38,584 bases of DNA from the NCBI GenBank assembly GCA_034368785.1, contig JAXMLI010000209.1, positions 1-38,584 on the forward strand, written 5' to 3'. This document shows positions 14,626-28,410 of the stretch, piece by piece. The notes beneath the pieces are model-generated. The model was not told the origin of the DNA, did no database searches, and worked only from the letters and a program-made list of their open reading frames with translations. Positions within the stretch are counted from its first letter, which is position 1; each line of letters starts with the position of its first letter. This DNA is from Smithellaceae bacterium (GTDB taxonomy: Bacteria > Desulfobacterota > Syntrophia > Syntrophales > CAMTWB01). A program made the translations under genes and the position numbers.

Positions 14626-16215
14626 ATGTCAGGACGATTTAAAAAGATCTGTTTCCTGCTTATGCTGGTTTTGCTCTTCTTCCCCGGTTTTCCGGTACAG
14701 GGGGCCGGGCCGGTTTCGGAGGTGCGCATTGCCGATAGCGCCGGGGATTGGGGGTATCCCAACCCCTTCCGCCATTACCCCCGTGGGCCTGGTTATGTCC
14801 GTATGAGCTGGGTTTTCGACACCTTAATCTGGAAGGATCAAAAGGGTCATGTTCCGGCGCTTGCGGAATCATGGCGCTACGATCCGGGCAACAGGACATT
14901 TACCTTCAAACTCAATCCCAAGGCCAGATGGCATGATGGCAAACCGGTGACGGCGGCGGACGTGGTCTTTACCATTGGCTATTACCGCAAACATCCTTAC
15001 CGCGCGGTCAACGTGGGACTGGTGGAGAGCGCCGTGGCCCAGGAGCGACATACCCTGGCGATCCGTCTGGCCAGGCCCTACAGCCCCTTTTTAGACGATA
15101 TCGGCGGCACCATGCCCATATTGCCCAAGCACATCTGGGAACTGGTGGATAAACCGGGAGAGTACAGCGAGCCGCAGGCTTTTATTGGCAGCGGTCCCTA
15201 TATGTTTCGTGATTTCAACAAGACCCAGGGAACGTACCTCTATGAGGCCTTTCCGGACTATTATCAGGGGCGGCCTAAGGCGGACAGGCTCATCTACCTC
15301 CGTTCAAGCCAACCACTGGTTTCCTTGACCACGGGGCAGGCGGATCTCGCCAGCATTCACCCGGATATGGTCCCCGCCCTGGAGAAGAAGGGTTTTGTGA
15401 TCATCCGGGATGAGCGGGGTTGGAATAAAAAATTGATGATTAACCACCGGAAGCCCCCTTTGAACGATAAACGCTTCCGGCAGGCCTTGGCCTACGCCAT
15501 CAATCAACGGGAGATATTAGAGAAGGGACATCGAGATGTGGGCCGGCCGGCGTCTTATGGACTGCTCTCCCTGGACCACGAGATGTATAATCCGCACACC
15601 CCCGCCTATCCCCATAATCCCGACAAAGCCAGGCAGTTGATGGAGGCATTGGGGTTCAAGCGCGGCGCCGATGGCTATTATCAGCACGGCAGCCAGGTCC
15701 TTTCGCTGGTTCTCCTGTCTTCCTCAATCACCGTTGCCGGCGAAACAGGGCCGGACCGGGACGGAGAGATTATCAAGAAACAACTGGAAGGGGTGGGCAT
15801 CCGGGTGGATTTGTTGAACCTGGAACAAGCCACCACGGACAGCCGCGTGCGGAACTGGGATTTTGATCTGGCCGTTTCCGGTCATGGCGGCCTCTACGGC
15901 GACCCCGTTGTACTGAACGAGATGATTTCGCCCGCCTACGGCGGCGCCTCGGTCAACAGCGCCCGCTACGATGCCAATCCTGAATTGAACCGCCTGCTGG
16001 AGGCGCAAATCACGGAGATGGATCCCGTAAAGAGAAAAGAAAAAGTCTATGAAATTCAAAGAATATACGCCGAGGAACTTCCGGCCATTTCCCTTTACTA
16101 TCCCGAGGCTGTGGCGGCTTACAATCCCCGCAAGGGGATTAACTGGTTCTACACCAAGGGCGGCATCAGTAAGGGGATTCCTATTTCCCAAAATAAGCTG
16201 GCGTTAATCAGGTGA
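14626..16215 (+). CDS. ABC transporter substrate-binding protein, family 5 (peptide/nickel/opine type)
   Basis: Signal peptide. 529 aa. Family-5 SBP look (W..D..G..VTA.DV.F, GSGPY.F). SD AGGAGG precedes the ATG. Confidence 0.85.
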   Translation: MSGRFKKICFLLMLVLLFFPGFPVQGAGPVSEVRIADSAGDWGYPNPFRHYPRGPGYVRMSWVFDTLIWKDQKGHVPALAESWRYDPGNRTFTFKLNPKARWHDGKPVTAADVVFTIGYYRKHPYRAVNVGLVESAVAQERHTLAIRLARPYSPFLDDIGGTMPILPKHIWELVDKPGEYSEPQAFIGSGPYMFRDFNKTQGTYLYEAFPDYYQGRPKADRLIYLRSSQPLVSLTTGQADLASIHPDMVPALEKKGFVIIRDERGWNKKLMINHRKPPLNDKRFRQALAYAINQREILEKGHRDVGRPASYGLLSLDHEMYNPHTPAYPHNPDKARQLMEALGFKRGADGYYQHGSQVLSLVLLSSSITVAGETGPDRDGEIIKKQLEGVGIRVDLLNLEQATTDSRVRNWDFDLAVSGHGGLYGDPVVLNEMISPAYGGASVNSARYDANPELNRLLEAQITEMDPVKRKEKVYEIQRIYAEELPAISLYYPEAVAAYNPRKGINWFYTKGGISKGIPISQNKLALIR

Positions 16216-16227
16216 CGGAGGGCGCCA

Positions 16228-17256
16228 TTGACAGATCAGACCAAAGGGCAATCAACCGGCCGACTTTCCCCTTTCCGTAGCATCGCCGGGAAGGTTCAGG
16301 GGGCCAAATACCGCGGGAAGGCCGGTTCTTACCTGCTTGCCATCCTCGTCCTGATAACCCTGAGTTACTTTCTGCCGCGGCTGTTGCCGGGGGATTTCGT
16401 CACCTCCATGTATTCCGGCGCTCCGGTGACCCTGACCGCGCTTCAGGAAGCGGAACTAAAGGCCTTCTACGCCAAGCAGGAAGGGTTTGGCAGATATGTG
16501 GCCAACCTGCTTTCCCTCAACTGGGGCTACTCCTATGCCTTTCTGGCGCCCGTCTCCCGGCTGGTTTTTGACGCCTTGCCCTGGACGTTGCTCTTGATTG
16601 GCAGCGCCCATCTGCTGGCCAGCATTTTCGGTTTCATTGCCGGGGTAGAAGCGGCCTGGCGGGGGGGCGTTTTTGAGAAGGTCGGGGTTTGGTTCATGAC
16701 CCTGCTGGAAGGGATCCCCGAGATGTGCCTGGGGGTCCTGCTCTTGCTGTTCTTTGCCCTGCATCTGGGCTGGTTTCCCGCCGCCGGTGCGGAAACCGCC
16801 TATGGGCGGCTAACGTCTTTCGAAGCCGTCCTGGACGTTATTCACCACCTGATACTGCCCCTCGCCACGCTGATTGTGGCTTATTTACCGGGAAACTTCC
16901 TGCTGGCCCGGGGGAGCATGATTATGACCATGGGACTTCCCTTCGTCACGACGGCCCGGGCCAAGGGGCTTACGCCGCGGCGTGTACGCTATGCCCATGG
17001 GGCCCGTAATGCCCTGTTGCCGCTGGCGACGCGTTTTGGACTGCGGATTGGCTTCCTGCTTACCGGGGCGCTGGTGGTAGAGACCGTTTTTTCCTATCCC
17101 GGCCTGGGTACGCTGCTCTTCAAGTCCATCGCCATGCGGGACCTGCCGCTGATCCAGGGGATCGTTTTGTTTTCCTCGGCGCTGATCCTGGCGGTTAACC
17201 TGGCGCTGGAGTTCCTTTACGGCTGGCTCGATCCGCGGGTGAGACATGCATCGTAA
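16228..17256 (+). CDS. ABC transporter permease (DppB/OppB/NikB-like)
   Basis: Six-TM profile. The EAA-type loop region ARAKGLTPRRVRYAHGARNALLP is diagnostic of the binding-protein-dependent permease family. The TTG start is uncertain. Confidence 0.85.
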   Translation: MTDQTKGQSTGRLSPFRSIAGKVQGAKYRGKAGSYLLAILVLITLSYFLPRLLPGDFVTSMYSGAPVTLTALQEAELKAFYAKQEGFGRYVANLLSLNWGYSYAFLAPVSRLVFDALPWTLLLIGSAHLLASIFGFIAGVEAAWRGGVFEKVGVWFMTLLEGIPEMCLGVLLLLFFALHLGWFPAAGAETAYGRLTSFEAVLDVIHHLILPLATLIVAYLPGNFLLARGSMIMTMGLPFVTTARAKGLTPRRVRYAHGARNALLPLATRFGLRIGFLLTGALVVETVFSYPGLGTLLFKSIAMRDLPLIQGIVLFSSALILAVNLALEFLYGWLDPRVRHAS

Positions 17257-18082
17257 TCATTATCAGGAGCTGTCGAAAGATCGGTGGTTTATCGTCGGGA
17301 GCGGGCTGGCGTTTTTGCTGGCCCTGGTTTTCCTGGCCGGGCCAAGCCTGATTCCTTACGATCCCCATGATATGTCCTATCGACCGCTCAGCCCGCCTTC
17401 CGGGATGCACTGGCTCGGGGTCAACGACGGCGGCATGGATATTTTAGCGGAGCTGATTGAAGGGGGACGCCATACCGTTGCCTTCGGCTTGCAGGCCGGC
17501 GCGGCGGGGCTGTTTCTCGGGGTGCTTGCCGGTCTGGCCGCGGCCTGGCGGGGCGGTTGGCCGGACCTTATCATCATGCGGCTGGCCGAGATCATGATGT
17601 CCATTCCCCCGGTGATGGTCCTGATTCTCGCCGCCGCCTTTTTCCGTCCCTCTCCCTCGGAACTGGCGCTGACATTGGCGTGCCTTTCCTGGCCCACCAC
17701 GGCCAAGGTCATAAGGTCCCAGGCCTTGGTGGTCAGGCAAAGCCTGCACGTGGAGGCGGCCAGGCGCATGGGAGGGACGAACTGGTATATCTTGGCGCGG
17801 CACCTGTTGCCGGAACTCTTTCCCCTCTACCTCATGGGTTTTGTGAATAAACTCCGCATGGCCATGTTCATGGAGGCGTCGCTGGCCTTCCTGGGGCTCT
17901 TTGACCCGAGCCGGAAAACCCTGGGCATGATGATCCGCTATGCGCTGAAATACTACTATCTCGACACCTGGTGGCACTGGATCCTTCCGCCCATCATCTG
18001 TCTGACGTTGATCATGGCAGCCGTTACCTTTCTGGCGATCAGCCTGGAGAAACTATTTCATCCCCGCTTAAAGGAACTATGA
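17246..18082 (+). CDS. ABC transporter permease (DppC/OppC/NikC-like)
   Basis: TM profile plus loop AARRMGGTNWYILARHLLPELFP. Overlaps the previous permease by 11 nt. Confidence 0.85.
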   Translation: MHRNHYQELSKDRWFIVGSGLAFLLALVFLAGPSLIPYDPHDMSYRPLSPPSGMHWLGVNDGGMDILAELIEGGRHTVAFGLQAGAAGLFLGVLAGLAAAWRGGWPDLIIMRLAEIMMSIPPVMVLILAAAFFRPSPSELALTLACLSWPTTAKVIRSQALVVRQSLHVEAARRMGGTNWYILARHLLPELFPLYLMGFVNKLRMAMFMEASLAFLGLFDPSRKTLGMMIRYALKYYYLDTWWHWILPPIICLTLIMAAVTFLAISLEKLFHPRLKEL

Positions 18083-18083
18083 C

Positions 18084-18279
18084 GATTTCGTAAAAGTCCG
18101 GATGCTGCGTTGCGCTGCATCCCTCGTCACTGCGGCGCGTTGTAGGGGCAGGTTTCAAACCTGCCCCTACGATCCGCTGGAGGATTGGCGCCCCTGGCCG
18201 CAGCCTGCCCCGGCGAAGGCCGGGGGCCTTTTTACGAAGCCGTCCCGAAACAGGCGTTTTTATGACTTTTTACGAGTTG
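18084..18279. mobile_element. MITE/REP-family insertion (copy E4) between the permease and ATPase genes
   Basis: The 196-bp segment is bounded by a perfect 12-bp direct repeat AGGAACTATGAC (18072-18083 and 18280-18291). TIR-like ends are GACGATTTCGTAAAAGTC and GACTTTTTACGAGTTGA. It contains a 14-bp perfect palindromic hairpin GTAGGGGCAGGTTT-c-AAACCTGCCCCTAC (18142-18170) and a CCCCGGC-GAAG-GCCGGGG hairpin. Confidence 0.7.
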
Positions 18280-18286
18280 AGGAACT

Positions 18287-20911
18287 ATGACCATGATGGA
18301 TATTGATAATTTCACCGTCGTCTATCGGGACGGGGAACACTCGTTGCTGGCCTTGGACAATGTCAGCATGCGGCTGGAGGGCGGTTTGGTAACCGCCCTG
18401 GTAGGAGAATCGGGATCCGGGAAAACCACCTTGGCAAAGGCCCTGATGGGACTGCTGCCGAAAAATGCCCGTACCCGGGGACGTATCCGGTTGGGCGAGC
18501 GGGAATTCACCGGGTGGGAGGAAGCCAACTACGGCGATACCCGCTGGGTGCGGGTGGCCATGGTCTTTCAGAACAGGTTGGAGAATCTAAACCCCCTGTA
18601 CCGAATTGTTGACCAGGTGGCGGAACCCTTGATTCACCGCCGCGGCATGAAAGCCGCCGCCGCCGCGATTCTGGCCGAAAAGGCGCTTCTGGAAATGGGA
18701 CTTTCCAGGGCGATCGTCAGGCGGTATCCCCATGAAGTGAGCGGCGGTCAGTTGCAACGGGCCCTGATTGCCATGGCCCTGATTCTTGATCCGGAAGTGC
18801 TCATCCTCGATGAGCCTACCTCGGCCTTGGACGCCGCCTACAGGGGATTCATCAGCGCCATGATTCGGAACCTGCGAGACCGTGGCAAGGCGATTCTGCT
18901 CATCTCCCACGATCTGGACCTGGTGGCCAAAACCGCCGATCAGGTGGCCGTGCTCTACCTGGGCCAGGTGATGGAAGTTTTACCCGCCGGGGAGCTGCTG
19001 CAGCAACCTCTTCATCCTTACAGTCTGGCCCTGGGCCGCTCTTTCCCGGGCATGGAGGTGCTGCGGGATCTTGGCGGCATCCGGGGCGACGGCTTTTACC
19101 GTCTGACGCACAGCCACCAACTGCCCGGAGCCGCAGCGCCCCATGTCCACGTGGTTTCTGTGGACGACGTGAAGGAAAATATCCACGCCCCTGACACGGG
19201 CTGCATTTTTCGGCCCCGTTGCACCCAATCGCGGGACGAATGCCGCCAAGCTCCAGTGCCCCTGTTAACAGCAGGAAACCGCCAGATCAGATGTTTGCGG
19301 GGCGGCATTGCGACGTTGCTGAGTCTGGAGGAAGTCGGCAAGACCTATGGCGCGGTGACGGCCCTGGCGCCGACTAATTTGAACGTGCGGGCCGGGGAGG
19401 TTTTGTGTCTGGTAGGCGAAACCGGCTCGGGGAAAACCACCCTGGCCATGATTGCGGCGGGGGCGCTTGCTCCTGACCAGGGGATACGGGTATTCGCCGG
19501 GCGGGACATGGATGGCTGGATGAAAGAGGACTATGGTTCCCTGGCGGCAAAGATCGGGGTGATTTACCAGAACCCCGTGGAATCGGTTAGTCACCGCTTT
19601 AACGCCTTTGATATCGTGGCCGAGCCGCTGCGCATACAGCAGGGGCTTCGTATCAAATCCGGGACGGGTGCGGTTCCCCGGGGGGCAGGGGATGATCTGC
19701 AGCGGCAGGTTCAGTCGGTCCTTAGGGATGTTCATCTGCCCACGAGCCCGGAATTTCTGCAGCGCTACCCTCATGAACTCAATATGGGGGCCATCCAGCG
19801 ATTATGCCTGGCGCGGGCGCTTGTTCACGATCCGCTCTTGATCGTGGCCGACGAGCCCACCAGTTCCCTGGACCCAAGCGTCCAGGCCAAGGTGCTGAGG
19901 ACGCTGATGAACCTCCAGATCGAAAAGGGACTGACCTTGATTTTTGTGACGCATGACATCGGACTCGCCCGCAAGATCAGCGACCGCATCGGCGTGATGT
20001 TAGCTGGCCGCCTGGTGGAAATCGGTCCGGCGGCCCTGGTGATTGGCCGGCCCGGTCATCCCTATACGCGGGGATTGATCGAGAGCGCCCGCGGCAGCGC
20101 GCAAGCGCACCTGGCGGGAGGGTCGGATTGGTCGGCATCCGCCGGCTGCCCCTTTGTGGAACGTTGCGACCGGTCCCGAAATTCCTGTGGCCGCCAAACA
20201 CCGCCACCGGTGAATTTGAATAGCGGCGCCCACCTGGCTTGGTGCTTCTACCCCTTGCTTCCGAGACCCCCGGTGGGCAAAAATCATGTTGGCGCCCCTG
20301 CCATGGGGCTGAGGGAAATTCGCAAAATGCGTGAGAGGATGGAAATGACTAAGAGAGAAAATTTCACGGAGGAGTTGATCCTGCGGCCCGTGGGTTATGT
20401 CCGAAACGAGCTTAAGACTCCCCTTGGGGGACCGGATGAGGCCGAGTTGGAAGGGGAATTACGAAGGGAGAAAATCCGACAGCGGGAGCGGCAAATCAAA
20501 ACCCTGGTCTCTGAGGTGATCATCGAACCCGGGCTGGAAGGAATACTGGAGGGCATCGAAGATTATTCCCATCTGCTGGTTATTTACTGGCCTCATCTCC
20601 TCCCGGCGGGGCATCGCGAGCTACGCCAGGTACACCCGCTGGGTTGCCGGGATCTACCCAAAAGGGGAATATTCGCCACCCGCAGCCCGGCCCGCCCCAA
20701 TCCGCTGCTCATTTCCACGGTTGCCCTGCTGGAACGAAAGAGGAACGTTCTGAGGGTTCAGGGACTGGAGGCCCTGGACGGAAGCCCGGTGCTGGACATC
20801 AAACCCTACGTGGAAATATGCCGCCCGGTGGAAAATCCCCGGTTTCCCCAATGGCTGCGGCGGATCAACCGGGATATGGAAGAGCCGCCGGTGTCGGAAG
20901 GCGAAGGATAG
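18287..20911 (+). CDS. Fused ABC ATPase: NBD1 (DppD-like) - NBD2 (DppF-like) - C-terminal TsaA/TrmO-like (UPF0066) domain
   Basis: 874 aa with no internal stop. NBD1 has GESGSGKTT, VSGGQLQR and ILILDEPTSALD. NBD2 has GETGSGKTT and LIVADEPTSSLD but a degenerate signature (NMGAIQR). The C-terminal ~180 aa (LRPVGYVRNE, LLVIYWPH, RGIFATRSPARPNP, LDGSPVLDIKPY) is a typical TsaA/YaeB fold. Confidence 0.85.
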   Translation: MTMMDIDNFTVVYRDGEHSLLALDNVSMRLEGGLVTALVGESGSGKTTLAKALMGLLPKNARTRGRIRLGEREFTGWEEANYGDTRWVRVAMVFQNRLENLNPLYRIVDQVAEPLIHRRGMKAAAAAILAEKALLEMGLSRAIVRRYPHEVSGGQLQRALIAMALILDPEVLILDEPTSALDAAYRGFISAMIRNLRDRGKAILLISHDLDLVAKTADQVAVLYLGQVMEVLPAGELLQQPLHPYSLALGRSFPGMEVLRDLGGIRGDGFYRLTHSHQLPGAAAPHVHVVSVDDVKENIHAPDTGCIFRPRCTQSRDECRQAPVPLLTAGNRQIRCLRGGIATLLSLEEVGKTYGAVTALAPTNLNVRAGEVLCLVGETGSGKTTLAMIAAGALAPDQGIRVFAGRDMDGWMKEDYGSLAAKIGVIYQNPVESVSHRFNAFDIVAEPLRIQQGLRIKSGTGAVPRGAGDDLQRQVQSVLRDVHLPTSPEFLQRYPHELNMGAIQRLCLARALVHDPLLIVADEPTSSLDPSVQAKVLRTLMNLQIEKGLTLIFVTHDIGLARKISDRIGVMLAGRLVEIGPAALVIGRPGHPYTRGLIESARGSAQAHLAGGSDWSASAGCPFVERCDRSRNSCGRQTPPPVNLNSGAHLAWCFYPLLPRPPVGKNHVGAPAMGLREIRKMRERMEMTKRENFTEELILRPVGYVRNELKTPLGGPDEAELEGELRREKIRQRERQIKTLVSEVIIEPGLEGILEGIEDYSHLLVIYWPHLLPAGHRELRQVHPLGCRDLPKRGIFATRSPARPNPLLISTVALLERKRNVLRVQGLEALDGSPVLDIKPYVEICRPVENPRFPQWLRRINRDMEEPPVSEGEG

Positions 20912-21036
20912 CGGCCGTTCCGCATCCGGAAGCTGAAGCTGTGATTCAGGCGCCTGATAAGCCGTTTTTTTGTGCTGCAAAGCCATCGTCGCCGGCGTAA
21001 AAACCGCACAGGCATCACGCTGTCGCGCCTCAAGCA

Positions 21037-21102
21037 ATGATGGATATTCTGTTACCTTTCCAATTTGTTACATCATTGTTTTCCCGTTGGCGCGGTTCGT
21101 GA
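21037..21102 (+). CDS. Candidate small ORF (21 aa, MMDILLPFQFVTSLFSRWRGS), copy 1
   Basis: It has a paralogue at 22502-22567 with the same ATG and TGA positions. Of 12 nt differences, 8 fall at codon position 3. Most replacements are conservative. No obvious SD. Below the ORF-track size cutoff. Confidence 0.4.
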   Translation: MMDILLPFQFVTSLFSRWRGS

Positions 21103-21155
21103 TGAGTTCCTGTCAGGTTTGCACCGCCCGCAGACCGGCGCCGGCCTGCGGAGGG

Positions 21156-21689
21156 TTAGAGTCCCTTCTTTTCGAACCAGCGGAAGAGGGCGATAAATGT
21201 CGCGACCAAGATGACGATGACGATCCAGTGATTGACACCAAGAACGGTGGGAAGAGTGACCTTTCCGAAATCCCCCCAGGTCAGGACCGTTTCCTGCATC
21301 AGGGGATACGCCTCGGCGTAGAGCCCCGCCCCGAGGAGCATCCCCAGCAGACCGAAGGCGCTGTCGTAGCGTCCCTCCCCCAAGGCCCCCATGGCCGTGG
21401 CGGGGCAGTACCCCACGATGCCCCAGCCGATCCCGAAGATCAGGCCGCCCAGCACGTTGCCCCCCAGGATCAACGGTTTGACGGAAAGCTTGATCAGCCC
21501 CAGATCGAGCAGAAAATAGATGCCTACCATGGCCACCAGGATCGTGGAGAGCATGAATTTGACGATGGTCATATCCCGGAGGCGCAGGGCGGCCAGTTGC
21601 CGGTCGTACCGGATCACCTGTGCCTTCTGCATGAAAAATCCAAAGAGGATTCCCGTGACGGCGCCGGTTAGCAGTTCATTCATGGGCAT
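21156..21689 (-). CDS. YeeE/YedE-family (sulfur/selenium transport-related) membrane protein, second half-protein
   Basis: 177 aa, 4-5 TM. The conserved GYCPAT motif and overall Sulf_transp look are present. The start overlaps the end of the upstream partner by 14 nt. Confidence 0.8.
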   Translation of the reverse strand: MPMNELLTGAVTGILFGFFMQKAQVIRYDRQLAALRLRDMTIVKFMLSTILVAMVGIYFLLDLGLIKLSVKPLILGGNVLGGLIFGIGWGIVGYCPATAMGALGEGRYDSAFGLLGMLLGAGLYAEAYPLMQETVLTWGDFGKVTLPTVLGVNHWIVIVILVATFIALFRWFEKKGL

Positions 21690-22203
21690 TCCCTCCTCCG
21701 TACAGGATCTTGGCCGTGACGATGCCGGCCAGAAAAAAGCAGATCAAGGATACATAACCACTGACGGCTACCTGAGCAAGACCGCTCAGACCATGACCGC
21801 TCGGTCACCCATCGGCGAGACGCGCCCCGAACATCAGGACTGTCCCGCCCAAAAAGGCCGCCGTCCAACGCCGGACGCGCGACGCCCCGAAGCGACCCTC
21901 CCACATCGGAGGCACGGCGACTGCCCGCTTTTCCTTCGAGAGCCAGGCTGAAGCCAGGGAGCCGAAGAGTACCCCGACGACGAACAGAAACTGCCAGTCA
22001 ACCTTTACCTTCTCTTTGAGGAAATACGCCATGCTGGCCACTTTGTCCGGCGCGACGGCCTGTTCGATAAAACCCGCCGCGCGGACGAAGGTGGTCGATG
22101 CGCCGAAGTATTTCCCCGTGATGAAAACGGAAAGAACCAGCAGAAGGCCGGCCAACGCACCGGCGGTGTAGGGAGACCATGTTTTGTTCCGAAGGACATC
22201 CAT
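21676..22203 (-). CDS. YeeE/YedE-family membrane protein, first half-protein, with in-frame UGA (candidate selenocysteine) at 21805-21807
   Basis: The ORF-track entry 21805..22203 ends ...FGARLADG at a TGA. The same frame continues PSGHGLSGLAQVAVSGYVSLICFFLAGIVTAKILYGGGNAHE*. Together these rebuild the family motif G-[C]-(T/P)-S-G-H-G-(L/I)-S-G with the TGA at the Cys position. Total length is 175 codons. Confidence 0.65.
21764..21800 (-). promoter_or_regulatory. Candidate bacterial SECIS hairpin
   Basis: The mRNA reads GCGG-ucauggu-CUGAGC-GGUCUU-GCUCAG-guag-CCGU. The 6-bp apical stem starts 16 nt after the UGA. The apical loop begins GGUC, as in the E. coli fdhF SECIS. Confidence 0.5.
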
Positions 22204-22373
22204 AATTTTTCACCTCCTTGGTTAACGAGTCGAAAAATGACCAGCCAGAATCCTAAGGCTGCCCCTGCCACCCGAACGGTTCCAAACAGAACGATATCCC
22301 TTTGTTTTGTCGACAATATGGAATACTGCGTGGAATGTCAATGGATAATTTGGCGAGATCCGGCTCCCCTATG

Positions 22374-22424
22374 GGGTCAGGCTTGCTTTGTTGTCCGATT
22401 AAAGCAACTCAGCAAGCCTGACCC
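22374..22424. repeat. REP-like long hairpin
   Basis: Perfect 14-bp stem GGGTCAGGCTTGCT / AGCAAGCCTGACCC with a 23-nt loop. A related hairpin GGCCAGGTCTTGC...GCAAGACCTGACC lies at 14399-14483. Confidence 0.6.
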
Positions 22425-22501
22425 TATTCTTATCCCGTGGTGCAAAATCTTCGTCACCAACGCAAAATCTGCACCGATTTCCTGCGGTCGCGCCTCAGGC
22501 A

Positions 22502-22567
22502 ATGATAGAGCTTCTATTACCATTACAATTGGTTACGATTTTGTTTTCCCGTTGGCACGGTTCGTGA
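22502..22567 (+). CDS. Candidate small ORF (21 aa, MIELLLPLQLVTILFSRWHGS), copy 2
   Basis: Paralogue of 21037-21102. It lies 52 nt upstream of the secreted-protein gene at 22619 on the same strand. No obvious SD. Confidence 0.4.
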   Translation: MIELLLPLQLVTILFSRWHGS

Positions 22568-22618
22568 GGAGTTCCTTGACAGGAAGTTAAAAATTCAAAA
22601 CTAACAAGGAGAAAAGGT

Positions 22619-22921
22619 ATGAAAACGAAACGGACAATGGTAACGGTAGTGGCAGTGGCAGCAATCTTGGCAATGACATTGACAGGCGAGGCGATCGCGC
22701 GAGGCGGCAACGGAAAGGGCGGTGGCGGCTCTCTCTCGGCTCCGGCGGGCAGCGCCACCACCCGCCCGGCAGATTCGCAGCGTCGCGACGGCACCTTTCT
22801 GACCACTGGCACGACGGCCAGCGGCGCCGCCACCCGCCCGGACCGCGGCAATGGGTTAAGGGATGGCAGCCGGCTTGGCCTCCCCGCGGCAGCGCCAGCG
22901 GCCCCGGTTACCGCACAGTAA
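22619..22921 (+). CDS. Small secreted Gly/Ala/Thr-rich protein (unknown function)
   Basis: SD AAGGAG. Signal peptide MKTKRTMVTVVAVAAILAMTLTGEAIA. The mature part is low-complexity and carries an LRDGS motif shared with the next gene. Confidence 0.6.
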   Translation: MKTKRTMVTVVAVAAILAMTLTGEAIARGGNGKGGGGSLSAPAGSATTRPADSQRRDGTFLTTGTTASGAATRPDRGNGLRDGSRLGLPAAAPAAPVTAQ

Positions 22922-23026
22922 GCGAAAATGGGAGTTCCTGCGGGGGCCTGAACGCCCCCGCTCCCAGCAGGCCGTCAGGCAGGCAACAACGATCACGGAA
23001 GCGAGTTCAGCGGCATAGGGATGAAA

Positions 23027-23044
23027 TTGGCGCAGTTACGGCAT
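23027..23044 (+). promoter_or_regulatory. Probable sigma-54 promoter
   Basis: TTGGCGCAGTTACGGCAT shows TGGCGC-N5-cgGCA with exact GG-N10-GC spacing. It lies ~35 nt upstream of the ATG at 23078. Confidence 0.55.
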
Positions 23045-23077
23045 CCTTGACGCGCAAGCAATGAAAGGAACTACAGC

Positions 23078-23410
23078 ATGAAGAAAATAATATTTGCCGC
23101 CGCCTTGGCGGGGATGATAATTGCCCTGTCGGCAATCCCGGCAGTAATCCAGGCAAGACAAGGGCAGGGCGCCATGACGGGGCAGGCCCTTCAGACGCAG
23201 ACGAAAAGTGGGGACCAGACTCAAGTGAAAAGCGGGCAGCGGACCCAGGAGAGAAAGCATCTCCGCGATGGTTCCGGCGCAAACGGAGGGGGCGTGAAAT
23301 CAGGCGTCACAGAAAAGAGGGACAAGGCCTATGGACCAAACGATGGCTCAGGCAAGGCGGGGGTGCGTCCTCAGGATGGCACAGGTTACGGTGCGCCCGC
23401 CAATCGTTGA
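23078..23410 (+). CDS. Small secreted Gly/Gln-rich protein with DGSG/DGTG repeats (unknown function)
   Basis: Signal peptide MKKIIFAAALAGMIIALSAIPAVIQA. Motifs LRDGSG, PNDGSG and PQDGTGYG. Confidence 0.6.
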   Translation: MKKIIFAAALAGMIIALSAIPAVIQARQGQGAMTGQALQTQTKSGDQTQVKSGQRTQERKHLRDGSGANGGGVKSGVTEKRDKAYGPNDGSGKAGVRPQDGTGYGAPANR

Positions 23411-23423
23411 AGCGCGGCCACAC

Positions 23424-23954
23424 ATGATGAGCCGGGCAATCTTTTTCGCCCTGCTCATCCTGTGGGTTATTTTGACGGGATTCGCCCGGCCAGCAGGGGC
23501 GCAGGATACGGGCCTCCCGGAAAGCGGCATCCGCTACCCGGGAGGATTCGATCTGAATACCGTCGGGGAAATTCAGGGCAGGGCCTTTGGTTTCGTCTTT
23601 CCCGAAAGCGGACCGGTGCGCTTTCAGGTGGCTTTCCTGAAAGAGACCTACATTGTTCTCACCTCTCCCGCGGCATTCTGGCATGACCTGAAAGGGGAAT
23701 TGAAGGAAGGAGGGGAGGTGCGCGTCCTGGGGTCCAAAACCCTCGGGGCCGATGGTCGCCTCTATCTGATTGCGCAGGAAGTCAGGATTCCGGAGAGGGA
23801 TATAATCGTCAATTTCCGTACGGAAAAGGGCTCTCCCCTCTGGTTGCAGTCGGGTGTGCGTTCCGGGAAAAGTCCGGGCAGCTCCGGCTCTTTCCCGCGC
23901 GGTGGTTCCGGAATCGGAAAAGGCGTCGGCGGCGCCGGCAAGGGAAGAAGATAG
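23424..23954 (+). CDS. Secreted protein of unknown function with a Gly-rich basic tail
   Basis: ATG 23424 gives signal peptide MMSRAIFFALLILWVILTGFARPAGA. This is followed by a ~110-aa globular part and the tail GSSGSFPRGGSGIGKGVGGAGKGRR. The start lies 14 nt after the previous stop. The ORF-track start at 23331 lies inside the previous gene. Confidence 0.6.
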   Translation: MMSRAIFFALLILWVILTGFARPAGAQDTGLPESGIRYPGGFDLNTVGEIQGRAFGFVFPESGPVRFQVAFLKETYIVLTSPAAFWHDLKGELKEGGEVRVLGSKTLGADGRLYLIAQEVRIPERDIIVNFRTEKGSPLWLQSGVRSGKSPGSSGSFPRGGSGIGKGVGGAGKGRR

Positions 23955-23969
23955 CCTACAGGAGAATAT

Positions 23970-24788
23970 ATGAAGTCACGGCAAGGGAAGATGATCTGGC
24001 TGATGGTGTTGTTTATCTCTCTGATCGGGAGCGAGGCCTCCGCCGACTGGGAAACGGGGATCAAATCGGGGTTTGACAGCAACGTCAATCGTTCCGTCTC
24101 CGAGGCCAGAAGCGATGCCTATTTGAAGGGGTATGCGCTTTATACGCGGGCGCCGGAGGAAAAGGATTCCCTGAACTGGACCCTGGCGTTGCTGCTGGAA
24201 GGGGTCGGCTATGTTCGGACCAGTGATCTGAACTACGGCTCTCTCACCCTGGAACCGGGGATAGATTTGTATCGCGGACCTCTATGGACCATAAGCGTTT
24301 CACCCCTGCTGCAGTTAAAAGGAATGAGCGATTCCGATCAGGCTGCCGTTGCTTTCGGCGGCAAAGTCGGTCTCAGGCAGCAATGGCAATCGGACCTTTA
24401 TACCGGGCAATACTATATTTACCGGGACAGTCGCGCCCGAGAGGATGTCTATTCCTTTAAAGAGCAGGCCCTGGGTGTCTATGGCGGCGTTGCCTGGGCC
24501 AAGTCCCTACTGCTGGAACTTGTCTATGAATTGTCCGCCGGCGATTCATTCACCAGCGTAGGCAGCATGACGACCATTCCCGCCGGCCGGGGACGTCGTT
24601 ACTCCACTACTTTTCGTTCCGATGTGGTCAGTGAGACGGTCAGCGGGCATACCTTCGGCGTTAATCTCTCGGTCGGTCTCACCTCGTCCCTCTCTTTGCT
24701 GCTGGAGTACTATCTGAAGTATCAGCAGGCAGATTCGGGAAGCTACAGCGCCCACGAGGGCGCCCTGGGACTGGGATATCGCTTCTGA
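23970..24788 (+). CDS. Outer-membrane beta-barrel protein (unknown family)
   Basis: SD AGGAG. Signal peptide ending SEASA. Alternating amphipathic strands. The C-terminal ...LGLGYRF, with a terminal Phe, is typical of OMPs. Confidence 0.65.
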   Translation: MKSRQGKMIWLMVLFISLIGSEASADWETGIKSGFDSNVNRSVSEARSDAYLKGYALYTRAPEEKDSLNWTLALLLEGVGYVRTSDLNYGSLTLEPGIDLYRGPLWTISVSPLLQLKGMSDSDQAAVAFGGKVGLRQQWQSDLYTGQYYIYRDSRAREDVYSFKEQALGVYGGVAWAKSLLLELVYELSAGDSFTSVGSMTTIPAGRGRRYSTTFRSDVVSETVSGHTFGVNLSVGLTSSLSLLLEYYLKYQQADSGSYSAHEGALGLGYRF

Positions 24789-25540
24789 GGGGTCAGTGGG
24801 TCAAAGGTCGGGACGGGCCTCTGGCGCATGTCCGAGGCCAGACAAAAAATGCCTGGGCGGTGATGCTCGATGGCGCCTGTGTCCTCAGCTGTTGTCAGAG
24901 TAACTTGCATTATGCCCGTTTCGTTCGCGGGCGGAATACTCTTCAATGTAACGTTCTCCGCTCACGGAACAGCGGGTTCCCGGGATCGGCGATGATGTTA
25001 ATAGCAGAAGCTGCTTATATCTGCGGGGCCGCGTCGAAATGCAGAAAGAGCCTCGGATACATTGGTCTCACCCCCCTAAGTTATTTCACAATAAGGCCAT
25101 GCCGATATATCCCTGAAGAACAACAGCTACAAGCCCGCACCATAACCATTCGAGCGAGTTCATTGAATACGGTTCGAAAGGTGCGAAGGATTGGCAGTTG
25201 ATTGTTGGGTCGTCTAAAATGCGTCTTTCTTCCTGTACTACACAACCAGCCGATACCAGGAAAAACTGCTGATTTCTTTTGGCAATGATCACCTTTATCG
25301 AGATCCGATTACTCCTAGGATGAAGACATCCAATCATGATGCCCTCGTAATAAGTCCTCATTTCCGCGCAGGCGGTAATCCAGGAAGTAGGTAACTTCCT
25401 ATTGTGTGCTACAAAACCGGACAGTCCATTTGCTTCTAAAGCTGTGATAAAATAAACTTGACAAAAAGGACTCCTTCCCTGTAGATCTCTGAGGGCGACG
25501 AAAAGAATGCGCTTACGCGTAAATTTGAGGAGGTAAAGAA

Positions 25541-26356
25541 ATGGGATTATCGCGAAGAGATCTGATGAAAAAGGCAGGCTTGGTGGCAGCGGCGGGCGGA
25601 TTTGCCGGGTTATCGCTTTCCCTGGCCAATAACGCCATCGGTTCGATGCAGGGACAGCAGAACCAAATACCCAATCTCCCCTGGCCCTACAAAAAACTCG
25701 ACCCCATAGCCGTTGCCGAAGATGGCTACACGGGATACTACAAGGGGGCGTGTTCCTATGGGGTGTTCGAATCGATCATCGGTCCGCTGCGGAAAGAGAT
25801 CGGATTCCCCTATACGATGATGCCCTCGGAACTCGTGGTTGTGGGACAGGGAGGAACGGCTGACACGGCATCTCTGTGCGGGGCGCTGAGCGGGGCGGCC
25901 GCTGCCATTTTTTTGGTGACCGGCGGCATGGATCGGAAACTGAGGGAGGTGGCCTACGCCATCATCCAGGATGTATTCCTTCAGTATGAGCAGACTGCGC
26001 TCCCGGATTACAGACCGAAGAACCCCAAATTTGAGATCGTCAAATCCGTCTCCGGCTCCAATCTCTGTCACATTTCGGTTTCCAAGTGGTGCAAGGAATC
26101 GAATTTCAAGTCTTTTTCCAAGGAACGGTCGGACCGCTGCGGCTGGATCACCGCCTCGGTGGCCAAGCACACTGCGGAGGCTCTCAATAAACACGCCGAC
26201 GGGAAATTCAAGGCGGCATATCCCCTTTCCGCTACCGCCCAGTCGTGCAGGAGCTGCCATGACAAAGGCAGCAAGTTAGAAAACACCAGAGGGATAACCG
26301 ATTGCGGCGGCTGCCACTTCACCCCGAAGAGCAAAAAAGATCACCCAAAAATTTAA
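25541..26356 (+). CDS. Tat-exported C_GCAxxG_C_C-family redox protein with two C-terminal CxxCH haem motifs (split-Soret cytochrome c-like)
   Basis: Twin-arginine signal (LSRRDLMKKAG). GACSYG...SLCGALSGAA motif. CRSCH and CGGCH lie near the C-terminus. SD GAGGAGG. Confidence 0.7.
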   Translation: MGLSRRDLMKKAGLVAAAGGFAGLSLSLANNAIGSMQGQQNQIPNLPWPYKKLDPIAVAEDGYTGYYKGACSYGVFESIIGPLRKEIGFPYTMMPSELVVVGQGGTADTASLCGALSGAAAAIFLVTGGMDRKLREVAYAIIQDVFLQYEQTALPDYRPKNPKFEIVKSVSGSNLCHISVSKWCKESNFKSFSKERSDRCGWITASVAKHTAEALNKHADGKFKAAYPLSATAQSCRSCHDKGSKLENTRGITDCGGCHFTPKSKKDHPKI

Positions 26357-26375
26357 GGTGTCAAGAAAGAGAGAA

Positions 26376-26427
26376 GAGGCCCCCTTCGCCCCCTTCGATT
26401 TCGGGGTGCGGGGGGCCTCTTTTTTTA
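26376..26427 (+). terminator. Rho-independent terminator
   Basis: GAGGCCCCC (26376-26384) pairs with GGGGGCCTC (26411-26419). An inner GCCCC/GGGGT stem is present. The hairpin is followed by TTTTTTT. Confidence 0.7.
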
Positions 26428-27099
26428 TCTGCCGGCTTATCGCGACGTCTCCTCCCCTTGTGCTTGCAGCGGTATTATACCGGATCAACTGCCCAGGGAA
26501 ATTCGCAGCAGTTTTTTTAAATTGAACCCATCGAGGAGATAGAAACACCGAGGGGGGACCGGTTGCTGTTTTCCCGACCGGGCCCTAGATCGTTTTGCCG
26601 GGCTCATTTGGGCCACGAAAAAGAGAAGGGAAGGCTGGAAAACAGCTTCGATAATTGAATATCCTTTTGAAAATGAAAAAACCCATTGCCCCTTGACAAC
26701 CAGCCAGGTGCGGCTTCAGAGAATAGAACTTTCAGACCCCGAGAGACCGAACCATCCTCCCACACACCAGCCACCCAACCCCCGGATATATCGCACTAGT
26801 CTGACGCCATGGCCGTAATTACAATGGCCTTGTCGGTGAAGGCATAGTCGAGCAATAGCTCATCCGGTTTCAGTTTTAGGTAGGTAATGTTGAAATCCGA
26901 GATTCCCTTCTTAGTTATTCCTGTCAGCTTCAGTACGCCTGGTAATCATCAGGGTTTTTCTCTCATTAATTCTAATGCTTTGTAGGTGTTACCAATAGCC
27001 GGCGTATTCATTTTTTCTTCGATCATTCCTACGCAGTACGGATTGAAATTTGCCACACAAACGCATCGGCCAAAAATCTCGCTCCCTGTAAGGAACTGC

Positions 27100-28152
27100 C
27101 TATCCCCTTGTTATTATTTTTTCCAGATTAGTTGCCCGGACGCCGATCAATCTTACGCGCTGGTTTAATTCAACCCGCTTCAGACAGGCGAAAGCCGCTT
27201 TTCGGATATCCTCTTCTGCATTGGCGGCATTCTCCAGGGAACAGGCCCGGGTGATGGTCTGGAAATCGCTGAAACGAATCTTCAGCGTGACGGTCCTGGC
27301 GCGGTAGCCTTTATTGGTGAGATCTGAAACAACCTCTTTCGTGAGTTCCGCGATGGTTCTGGCGATGATCTGCCAGTTTTTCACATCTTCCTGAAATGTC
27401 GTCTCCCGGCTGAATGATTTCGGCTCCCGGTGCGTCACCAGGGGACATTCGTCCAGGCCTCTCGCCGCCTCATAAAGGTAATGTCCATAGGAAGGGCCGA
27501 AACGGGTGAGGAGAATCTCCAGGGGCAAGGCCGCCAACTGTCCGATGGTCTCAATATTCATCGCCTTGAGATGTCCTTCCGTCTTTGGTCCGATCCCGTA
27601 TAACTTTCTGATGGGCAGGGGCCATAAGCTGCCCTCGATGTCCTCTTCCGTAATAACGACAAGACCATCGGGCTTCTTAAGATCTGAAGCAATCTTTGCC
27701 AGCAGCTTATTCGGGGCGATGCCGATGGAGCAGGTCAATCCGGTTTTTTCAAGAATGCCGGTCTTGATCTTATCCACAAGGACATCATTGGCATCCGGCT
27801 CAGCGGATAAATCCAGGTATGCCTCATCGATGCCCACATCCTCCAGGAGCGAGGTGATCTCCCTCAGCACCGTTTTGAACTGGCGGGAGACCGCTTCGTA
27901 GGCCTCATAATCAACGGGCAGGAATACCGCCTGAGGACAAAGTTTATGGGCCGTCCTCAAAGGCAGGGCCGAGTGGATGCCGTATTTTCTGGCCTCGTAA
28001 TTGGCCGTAGAGACAACGCCTCTTTTTGACGGATCTCCCCCGCCGCCAATGACCACGGGCCTTCCTTTCAGCGCCGGATTCCTTTTTTCTTCCACGGCGG
28101 CAAAAAAGGCATCCATGTCGATATGCAATATTCTCCTCATGGGGGAGAGCAT
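27100..28152 (-). CDS. dinB: DNA polymerase IV (Y-family translesion polymerase)
   Basis: ILHIDMDAFFAAVE, VVSTANYEARKYGI and the little-finger region are typical of DinB. The alternative start at 28140 (MRRILHID) is the more likely one. Confidence 0.92.
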   Translation of the reverse strand: MLSPMRRILHIDMDAFFAAVEEKRNPALKGRPVVIGGGGDPSKRGVVSTANYEARKYGIHSALPLRTAHKLCPQAVFLPVDYEAYEAVSRQFKTVLREITSLLEDVGIDEAYLDLSAEPDANDVLVDKIKTGILEKTGLTCSIGIAPNKLLAKIASDLKKPDGLVVITEEDIEGSLWPLPIRKLYGIGPKTEGHLKAMNIETIGQLAALPLEILLTRFGPSYGHYLYEAARGLDECPLVTHREPKSFSRETTFQEDVKNWQIIARTIAELTKEVVSDLTNKGYRARTVTLKIRFSDFQTITRACSLENAANAEEDIRKAAFACLKRVELNQRVRLIGVRATNLEKIITRG

Positions 28153-28220
28153 AAAGATAAATCGGGATTATTACAAGGGGGCGGCGCTCAGAAAGTGAGG
28201 GAGGGACAATCTTGGGGTAC

Positions 28221-28410
28221 CATTCTAAGTAACTCGACCATAAGTACTTGAAATTGTGCAAGTACATTTTTTTGGAGGGACGCGCTCCGTCGCGTCCGTG
28301 GCAGGTAGTGCAATATTCAAAGCCGTTCGGCCACGACGGAGCGTGGCCCTCCAAAATTCAAAGGCAAGTTACTCGTCGATGTGGGGCCGCAGGCGGTGTG
28401 GGTCGCTTTT
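28221..28410. repeat. Second, inverted copy of the ~175-nt structured repeat module (truncated MITE)
   Basis: About 90% identical to the reverse complement of 8400-8575, with a central ~100 nt identical. The left hairpin and TIR are missing. The degenerate right TIR supplies the last codons and the stop of yaiI. Confidence 0.7.

Follow-up and report, generated by a model that had tools for sequence, protein, structure and literature searches.

The question raised by this locus is whether the TGA codon at positions 21807–21805 ends the gene in which it stands or is read as selenocysteine (Sec). The codon lies on the minus strand of a 38,584-nt contig from a Smithellaceae bacterium (GenBank JAXMLI010000209.1, assembly GCA_034368785.1; hereafter, the window), in a half-size gene of the YeeE/YedE transporter family that is followed by a second, partner gene of the same family. 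From sequence comparisons, we conclude that the first gene is very probably a selenoprotein gene, in which UGA 21807–21805 is read as Sec at residue 133, and that it encodes the first half of a split YeeE/YedE transporter. The features on which this conclusion draws, including a hairpin that resembles a selenocysteine insertion sequence (SECIS), are as follows:

21676..22203, minus strand: Sec-containing YeeE/YedE half-protein gene (predicted), made up of 132 codons, the UGA (Sec133) and 42 further codons; product of 175 amino acids (aa)
21805..21807, minus strand: in-frame UGA, residue 133, predicted Sec, at the invariant Cys column of G-C-P-S-G-H-G-L-S-G
21771..21790, minus strand: SECIS-like hairpin UCUGAGCG-GUCU-UGCUCAGG (core CUGAGC/GCUCAG), with a loop that begins G-U
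21156..21689, minus strand: partner YeeE/YedE half-protein gene (PF04143), 177 aa from the ATG at 21689 or 175 aa from a conserved start, MNELL, at 21683
21691..21699, minus strand: Shine–Dalgarno-like GGAGGAGGG for the partner, read from the sequence, inside the conserved YGGGN tail of the read-through region

The minus-strand open reading frame (ORF) 22203..21808 starts at ATG 22203 and encodes 132 aa with the C-terminus ...FGARLADG, followed by TGA 21807–21805. Beyond the UGA, exactly 42 further sense codons (PSGHGLSGLAQVAVSGYVSLICFFLAGIVTAKILYGGGNAHE) precede the next in-frame stop, TGA 21678–21676, so that the read-through end overlaps the start region of the partner gene, ATGAATGA. An earlier sequence-only reading of the locus had pointed out the stop after FGARLADG, the 42 further sense codons, the overlap with the partner start and a hairpin, CUGAGC-GGUCUU-GCUCAG, 16 nt past the UGA. 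All of these were found as described, with the partner ATGs at 21689–21687 and 21683–21681 and the core hairpin at 21789–21772.

A TGA in this place might be a sequencing or assembly error for TGC or TGT, as the sequence-only reading had allowed, or a strain-level polymorphism. A single base (A versus C or T) separates the two states, and natural Cys forms of the protein are 82–91% identical to the Sec half-protein. However, the identical TGA is found in an independent Logan assembly (L001, from SRR26726069) that has one mismatch in 10,037 nt relative to window positions 18250–28286, and 63 species-level genomes, assembled independently in many studies, have TGA at this codon. The probability of an error or a polymorphism is therefore negligible.

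These 63 genomes come from a survey of the codon at the residue-133 column in the DNA of the best 80 species-representative genomes, fetched by homology. They are mostly metagenome-assembled genomes named Smithella, Syntrophus, Syntrophaceae, Syntrophales and Syntrophorhabdus, together with the cultured Syntrophorhabdus aromaticivorans UI. The codon was TGA in 63 of the 80, including the cultured S. aromaticivorans UI, and TGC or TGT in 17. Database homologs of the window protein fall into two classes: proteins of 172–176 aa with Cys at residue 133, which are up to 91% identical, and a large class of 132–135 aa that terminate exactly at ...ARLADG. When the full-length forms were aligned, the motif G132-C133-P-S-G-H-G-L-S-G141 was invariant and the 42 residues after the TGA could be aligned without gaps. 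The TGA thus sits on the conserved Cys of the family, as had been supposed from the sequence, and the Cys homologs are collinear with the read-through protein to its end. Homologs that end at this position with nothing conserved downstream had been named as grounds for giving up the idea; instead, the Cys forms read through, and the frames beyond the TGA are conserved.

The second class raises the alternative that TGA is a true stop, the 132-aa product being functional or the gene a pseudogene, and that the 42 downstream codons are an untranslated spacer. Automatic gene callers do annotate the stop at the TGA, dozens of database entries have 132 aa, and no Sec machinery was observed in the window. 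However, in all TGA forms that are not truncated by a contig end, the frame past the TGA is open for 38–42 codons without a frameshift. The pairwise ratio of nonsynonymous to synonymous differences (pN/pS) was 0.22 over 35 codons past the TGA, compared to 0.36 over 60 codons before it, and the nucleotide variation downstream of the TGA falls mostly at third codon positions. The post-TGA codons are under purifying selection, stronger than that on the upstream coding part. This pattern of a conserved TGA followed by an open, constrained frame cannot be explained by a true stop, a pseudogene or an assembly error. Furthermore, a 132-aa product would lose the last transmembrane helix and the loop that carries the essential first cysteine (see below), and the partner start overlaps the read-through stop, not the UGA, in 45 of 47 loci. 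We consider termination at the TGA highly improbable. What remains is an in-frame UGA that is aligned to a Cys in homologs and has coding conservation on both sides, which is the pattern expected of a selenoprotein gene.

An open, conserved frame would equally result if UGA were generally a sense codon in this organism, read as Trp or Gly under an alternative genetic code without a SECIS-dependent mechanism, although nothing specific speaks for such a code. TGA terminates 7 of 17 other well-supported window genes, as well as the read-through ORF itself, and thus is not a general sense codon here. The homologous residue at the UGA column is always Cys, never Trp or Gly, and the UGA comes with a conserved hairpin. 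Recoding by an alternative genetic code can be set aside as almost without probability.

With a flanking U·G pair and a G·U closing pair, the hairpin comprises 8 bp and a GUCU loop, with a folding energy of −9.9 kcal/mol. The apical loop begins 22 nt past the UGA and the core hairpin at the 16th nt. The 76-nt context of the hairpin has a folding energy of −28.5 kcal/mol and a z-score of −2.2 relative to shuffled sequences. We take the GGUC of the loop region to resemble the loop of the E. coli fdhF SECIS. The published criteria for a bacterial SECIS comprise a loop of 3–9 nt on a stem of 4–16 bp; a G among the first two loop nucleotides, after which G or U is usual; a distance of 16–37 nt from the UGA; and a folding energy of −7.5 kcal/mol or lower (PMC13188914, section 5). 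The window hairpin lies within all four.

Two variants of the hairpin occur among the 63 TGA forms. In type A, L-S-G-L-A-Q is encoded by CUGAGC-GGUCUK-GCUCAG; in type B, the peptide is L-S-G-S-L-Q and the RNA, CUGAGCG-GUU-CGCUYCAG, has a single bulge. The stem is retained despite the altered peptide. The codons of Leu139 and Gln144 are CUG/CAG in 50 TGA forms and UUG/CAA in 13, and no mixed pair occurs. Ser140 is encoded by AGC in 63 of 63 and Ala143 by GCU in 45 of 45, and Gly141 in the loop is GGU in 59 of 63. Just upstream of the stem, the codons of Gly136, His137 and Gly138 vary freely. Pairing was counted in 57 distinct homologous sequences (41 of type A and 16 of type B). In type A, pairing of the six core pairs was complete (100%); in type B it was 97.9%, compared to 24–47% for control partners slid by 1–3 columns. 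Within type A, one pair covaries between CG (29 sequences) and UA (12 sequences), with synonymous changes on both sides. The pair below the core, between the third base of the Gly138 codon and the first base of codon 145, occurs as U-A (17), G-C (10), C-G (9) and A-U (9).

We also compared the stability of the hairpin with that of synonymous recodings sampled according to the codon usage of the window. For the core hairpin of the 63 TGA forms, the median share of recodings that folded equally well was 1%. The close Cys forms retain the hairpin, whereas the distant Cys forms are without it: in seven of eight of the latter, 24–93% of recodings folded as well, the exception being L065 at 2%. Loss of the hairpin was seen in the distant Cys loci L039, L041, L060, L074, L075, L077, L081 and L043/45/48. 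The hairpin, the loop of which the sequence-only reading had likened to that of the fdhF SECIS, is present, conserved and covarying among the TGA forms.

The Cys codons of six loci (L002, L003, L004, L017, L050 and L080) are nested among close Sec relatives, and these loci have kept the full SECIS-like hairpin, which suggests recent conversions from Sec to Cys.

The read-through protein, with Cys placed at residue 133, matched Pfam PF04143 (Sulf_transp) with 78 bits (cut-off 27; E = 1.2e-21). The match covers residues 4–161 and profile positions 172–309 of 310, and spans the TGA. The partner matched the same profile with 63 bits at positions 16–149. Since the two halves cover complementary segments of PF04143, the pair represents a YeeE/YedE protein split into two half-size genes, with the C-terminal-like half encoded first. 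Scores against the NCBIfam models of TsuA/YeeE (NF041049 and NF052577) were far below the cut-offs (43 and 51 bits against 400, and 30 and 39 against 645). The same was true of the YedE/FdhT models NF033796, with 27 and 32 bits, one per half, against 350, and TIGR04112, with 26 bits for the partner against 200. By these scores, the gene pair is placed within the superfamily and outside its named, functionally defined subfamilies.

The family profile could be aligned to the crystal structure of Spirochaeta thermophila YeeE (6LEO; E = 1.3e-9), in which the Sec/Cys column corresponds to C293. The partner aligned to residues 3–176 of 6LEO (E = 1.2e-9), with Cys95 at C91 and Ile26 at C22. The halves thus align to the C- and N-terminal halves of 6LEO, and the Cys-bearing loops conserved in the family (G-G-C-x-x-G, at the center of the membrane; C91 and C293 in YeeE) have their counterparts at partner Cys95 and residue 133, while the third Cys, C22, is not conserved. 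In YeeE, three cysteines are in line through the thinnest part of the protein, C293 being the outward-facing, periplasmic “first cysteine” (PMC7449682). C293 is equivalent to C302 in E. coli YeeE, is essential by mutagenesis and contacts thiosulfate in the crystal (PMC7449682). Neither C293 nor C91 can be replaced, and both line the thiosulfate path (PMC7449682; PMC11073785). The alignment puts the predicted Sec exactly at this thiosulfate-contacting residue, in agreement with the earlier suggestion that the aligned Cys is the one essential for thiosulfate uptake by YeeE.

The partner gene was found in 81 of 82 loci and is the sole conserved neighbor in ORF synteny clustering. It is always a Cys form, never a Sec form, with Cys95 in the motif GYCP. 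Since the read-through stop falls inside the start region of the partner, ATGAATGA preceded by GGAGGAGGG, the two halves are probably made together.

Several observations weigh against Sec at residue 133 and its placement. Neither the 38.6-kb window nor the fetched flanks showed selA, selB, selC or selD: ARAGORN found no tRNA-Sec in the window and 60 loci, only a tRNA-Thr near some of the loci, and a Pfam scan of 30 window ORFs found no SelA, SelB, SelD, YedF or TusA. Taken alone, the window hairpin is marginal, with 5.8% of synonymous recodings folding as well, and the whole 45 nt past the UGA fold no better than recodings (48%). A lower SECIS helix, for which alignment columns 11–15 were paired with 43–47, was rejected: it was 79% paired, with almost no covariation. 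The UUG/CAA state is present in just about three sequence groups. The conserved amino acids fix much of the stem, so that a handful of synonymous sites, and one or two pairs that covary, supply the independent evidence for the hairpin. Rfam gave no match to a SECIS or any other RNA, either in the window at gathering thresholds or in 21650–21900 at E values up to 10, although this carries little weight because bacterial SECIS elements are too diverse. Finally, the AlphaFold2 model of the isolated half, made from a 35-sequence alignment, had low confidence (predicted local distance difference test score, 57.6; predicted template modeling score, 0.33), which leaves the sequence alignment with 6LEO as the basis for placing residue 133 in the fold.

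As for the machinery, heavy use of Sec is known in this lineage: Syntrophus aciditrophicus has 19 selenoproteins (PMC1794560), and selA, selB, selC and selD are present in a Smithella composite genome (PMC5389517). These reports concern the relatives and not the source organism itself.

The same lineage provides the material for another explanation, in which the UGA is recoded at least partly as Cys by a tRNA(Cys) of the selC* type whose anticodon is UCA, brought in by a second SelB (SelB*). Genes for selC* tRNA(Cys) have been described in delta-proteobacteria (Syntrophobacterales and Desulfobacterales) and in the Smithella composite genome; in some cases the anticodon is opal and selB* lies next to the gene, and suppression of UGA as Cys was observed in an E. 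coli reporter (PMC5389517). Cys would also suit the site, since 17 of the 80 relatives encode it directly. However, neither selC*, selB* nor cysS* was seen in the window or the flanks. The selC* genes with an opal anticodon always occurred together with cysS*, a gene found in a subgroup of the Desulfobacterales, and the genomes that carry them also had a complete Sec apparatus (PMC5389517). Moreover, a plain UGC would be cheaper if Cys were intended, and the retention of the UGA and the hairpin in 63 species argues for a benefit that is specific to Sec. Recoding as Cys is thus quite unlikely, and we retain Sec as the residue most consistent with the data.

For Sec at residue 133, the following mechanism can be proposed. 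With Sec-tRNA(Sec) as its cargo, SelB would bind the hairpin located 22 nt past the UGA and insert Sec at residue 133, giving a 175-aa half-transporter instead of one of 132 aa. The read-through ribosome would terminate at TGA 21678–21676 within the initiation region of the partner, which would help to produce matched amounts of the two halves. These would assemble into a YeeE-like, hourglass-shaped heterodimer; both the insertion of Sec and the formation of the heterodimer are inferred from the sequence. In the heterodimer, Sec133 would replace the first cysteine (C293), capturing the anion on the periplasmic side, and Cys95 of the partner would replace the “second cysteine” (C91). The selenol or selenolate would be the first to contact the incoming sulfur- or selenium-containing anion, and would then pass it to Cys95. 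By homology with YeeE, the most likely substrate is thiosulfate or a chemical relative (a polysulfide species or an oxyanion of sulfur or selenium), and the benefit of Sec is probably a stronger, more nucleophilic contact with the substrate sulfur than that made by a thiol.

The transport proposed for YeeE is a passive relay of S–H···S hydrogen bonds. A more far-reaching idea is that Sec is the usual state at the first-cysteine site of the split transporters of Syntrophales and relatives and that it alters transport itself, through a transient covalent Se–S or Se–Se bond, or a selenenylsulfide with Cys95 of the partner. The pair would then act as an importer, catalytic or gated by redox state, of thiosulfate, polysulfide or selenium species. 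We regard this idea as speculative and rather unlikely. If it were true, the pair could be the missing dedicated selenium uptake route of the selenoprotein-rich syntrophs.

Two further elements, upstream and downstream of the gene pair, were noted:

22313..22341, minus strand: sigma-70-like promoter match, TTGACA-17-TATTGT, 10 of 12 positions (a match to the consensus only), about 110 nt upstream of the Sec gene start
21123..21156, no strand assigned: GC-rich palindrome (inverted repeat), beginning at the last base of the partner stop codon (21158–21156), between convergent genes

The palindrome is probably a terminator. Just beyond the promoter match (22341–22313), about 170–220 nt upstream of the Sec gene start, lies an inverted repeat (22371–22427) with 23-nt arms that are 87% complementary and an 11-nt spacer; it may serve as an operator or terminate a neighboring transcript. 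The gene pair is also flanked by a 140-nt direct repeat (20972–21111 and 22437–22576), the copies of which are 78–84% identical, with the last 34 nt almost identical. Among 85 fetched loci, this repeat was present only in the twin contig, L001. The copy at 22437–22576 lies just upstream of a small secreted Gly-rich ORF (22619–22921, plus strand). The repeat could represent a duplicated promoter or regulatory region, or the scar of a cassette insertion.

Gene context gave no firm clue to function in the clustering of 82 loci. After the partner, the next most frequent real neighbors, found at about 10 loci, include quinone-oxidoreductase-like, pyridine-nucleotide-disulfide oxidoreductase-like and metallo-beta-lactamase-fold proteins (names read from the sequence). 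In a Smithella-like group of loci (L008, L015, L018 and L082–L085), a tRNA-Thr(CGU) gene lies about 2.4 kb upstream of the cassette, which adjoins an AbiEi/AbiEii toxin–antitoxin pair, a setting that hints at a variable or mobile neighborhood.

Elsewhere in the window, an operon for an Opp/Nik-type ATP-binding cassette (ABC) importer occupies 14626–20911 on the plus strand. It includes an SBP_bac_5 binding protein, two permeases and a single 874-aa ORF in which two ABC ATPase domains are fused to a C-terminal TrmO_N (tRNA methyltransferase O-like) domain, an unusual fusion. At 22619–22921 and 23078–23410 (plus strand) lie two ORFs of 100 and 110 aa without a Pfam match, the products of which have N-termini resembling signal peptides and tails rich in Gly, Thr and Ala. 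Next come a 207-aa ORF, also unmatched, and an ORF with a weak outer membrane protein beta-barrel match (23970–24788). The gene at 25541–26356 (plus strand) encodes a member of the C_GCAxxG_C_C family that has a twin-arginine-type signal. Sec forms of that family are catalogued; the window gene was considered as a second selenoprotein and ruled out, since it is a plain Cys form with no in-frame TGA and an upstream frame full of stops.

If the conclusion about residue 133 is right, the current annotation as a 132-aa fragment is wrong both for this gene and for dozens of database entries, the predicted correct product being 175 aa. No NCBIfam model recognizes the half-size family, so that the truncation will keep spreading through annotations. 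The gene would be among the few cases of a predicted Sec in the substrate path of a membrane transporter instead of a soluble redox enzyme. The natural Cys forms offer a clean comparison of Sec and Cys for the role of selenium in transport.

How does the locus compare with known systems? The sequence-only reading could not say whether the catalogs already held Sec forms of this family; they do. Table S3 of Peng (2016) lists the “YeeE/YedE family” among known or previously predicted bacterial selenoprotein families, with five organisms (PMC5029168), and it is likewise catalogued as a predicted selenoprotein by Zhang (2022; PMC9312934) and Zhang (2026; PMC13188914). The catalog entry gives the motif GUxSG, Pfam PF04143 and the example WP_012471001.1 (PMC13188914). 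No YeeE/YedE entry was found in the main text or supplements of Zhang & Gladyshev (2008), which is cited by the reviews; Peng's Table S3 is the earliest explicit listing that we found. The locus therefore does not represent a new category, the family having been listed since at least 2016. The window protein and the catalogued family share PF04143 and a single Sec per protein, and the sequence D-G-U-P-S-G-H-G in the window fits GUxSG, the correspondence being made by motif and Pfam. Both were predicted from a TGA aligned to a conserved Cys together with a bacterial SECIS. On this basis, the window gene appears to be a well-supported further example of the catalogued, predicted family. They differ in extent: five organisms were listed in 2016, whereas here the Sec form is the majority (63 of 80) in a half-size clade of Syntrophales and Syntrophorhabdus. 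What is added here is this majority state of Sec, the nucleotide-level evidence for a SECIS, the correspondence of Sec133 to the first cysteine of YeeE, and the conserved overlap with the partner start.

YeeE itself (TsuA; S. thermophila and E. coli; 6LEO, 6LEP, 8J4C and 8K1R) belongs to the same fold family by sequence profile and has the counterparts C293 and C91. However, it is a single chain of about 330 aa in which all three positions are Cys, whereas two genes of about 175 aa are found here, with Sec predicted for the first cysteine (C293) and Ile replacing the third (C22), which in YeeE lies at the interface with YeeD. YeeE works with the cytoplasmic YeeD/TsuB, and no such gene adjoins the pair: a TusA/YeeD/SirA-like gene was not found among the scanned window ORFs, and none recurs beside the relatives. 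Given these differences and the scores far below the TsuA cut-offs, thiosulfate as the substrate is an extrapolation.

YedE/FdhT (NF033796 and TIGR04112) shares the superfamily with the window pair, to which it has weak matches, and YedE has been tied to selenium use by comparative genomics (PMC5322559, PMC9312934). It differs in being a full-length Cys protein encoded beside yedF or selD, neighbors that were not seen here. The bacterial SECIS consensus (the Zhang & Gladyshev model) and the E. coli fdhF SECIS have in common with the window an intragenic hairpin directly downstream of the UGA; the fdhF SECIS has a bulged U, whereas the window hairpin does not.

The remaining comparison is with SaoP, an ABC-transporter permease selenoprotein of anaerobes with Sec at a substrate-gating position (Haft & Gwadz 2023). 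As in the window pair, this is a membrane transport protein with Sec in place of Cys in the substrate path, with a minority of Cys forms and with database entries that are usually truncated. SaoP, however, has an unrelated fold, that of a MetI-like ABC permease, and is encoded in the nine-gene SAO locus, whereas the window pair belongs to the YeeE hourglass family and forms a stand-alone cassette of two genes.

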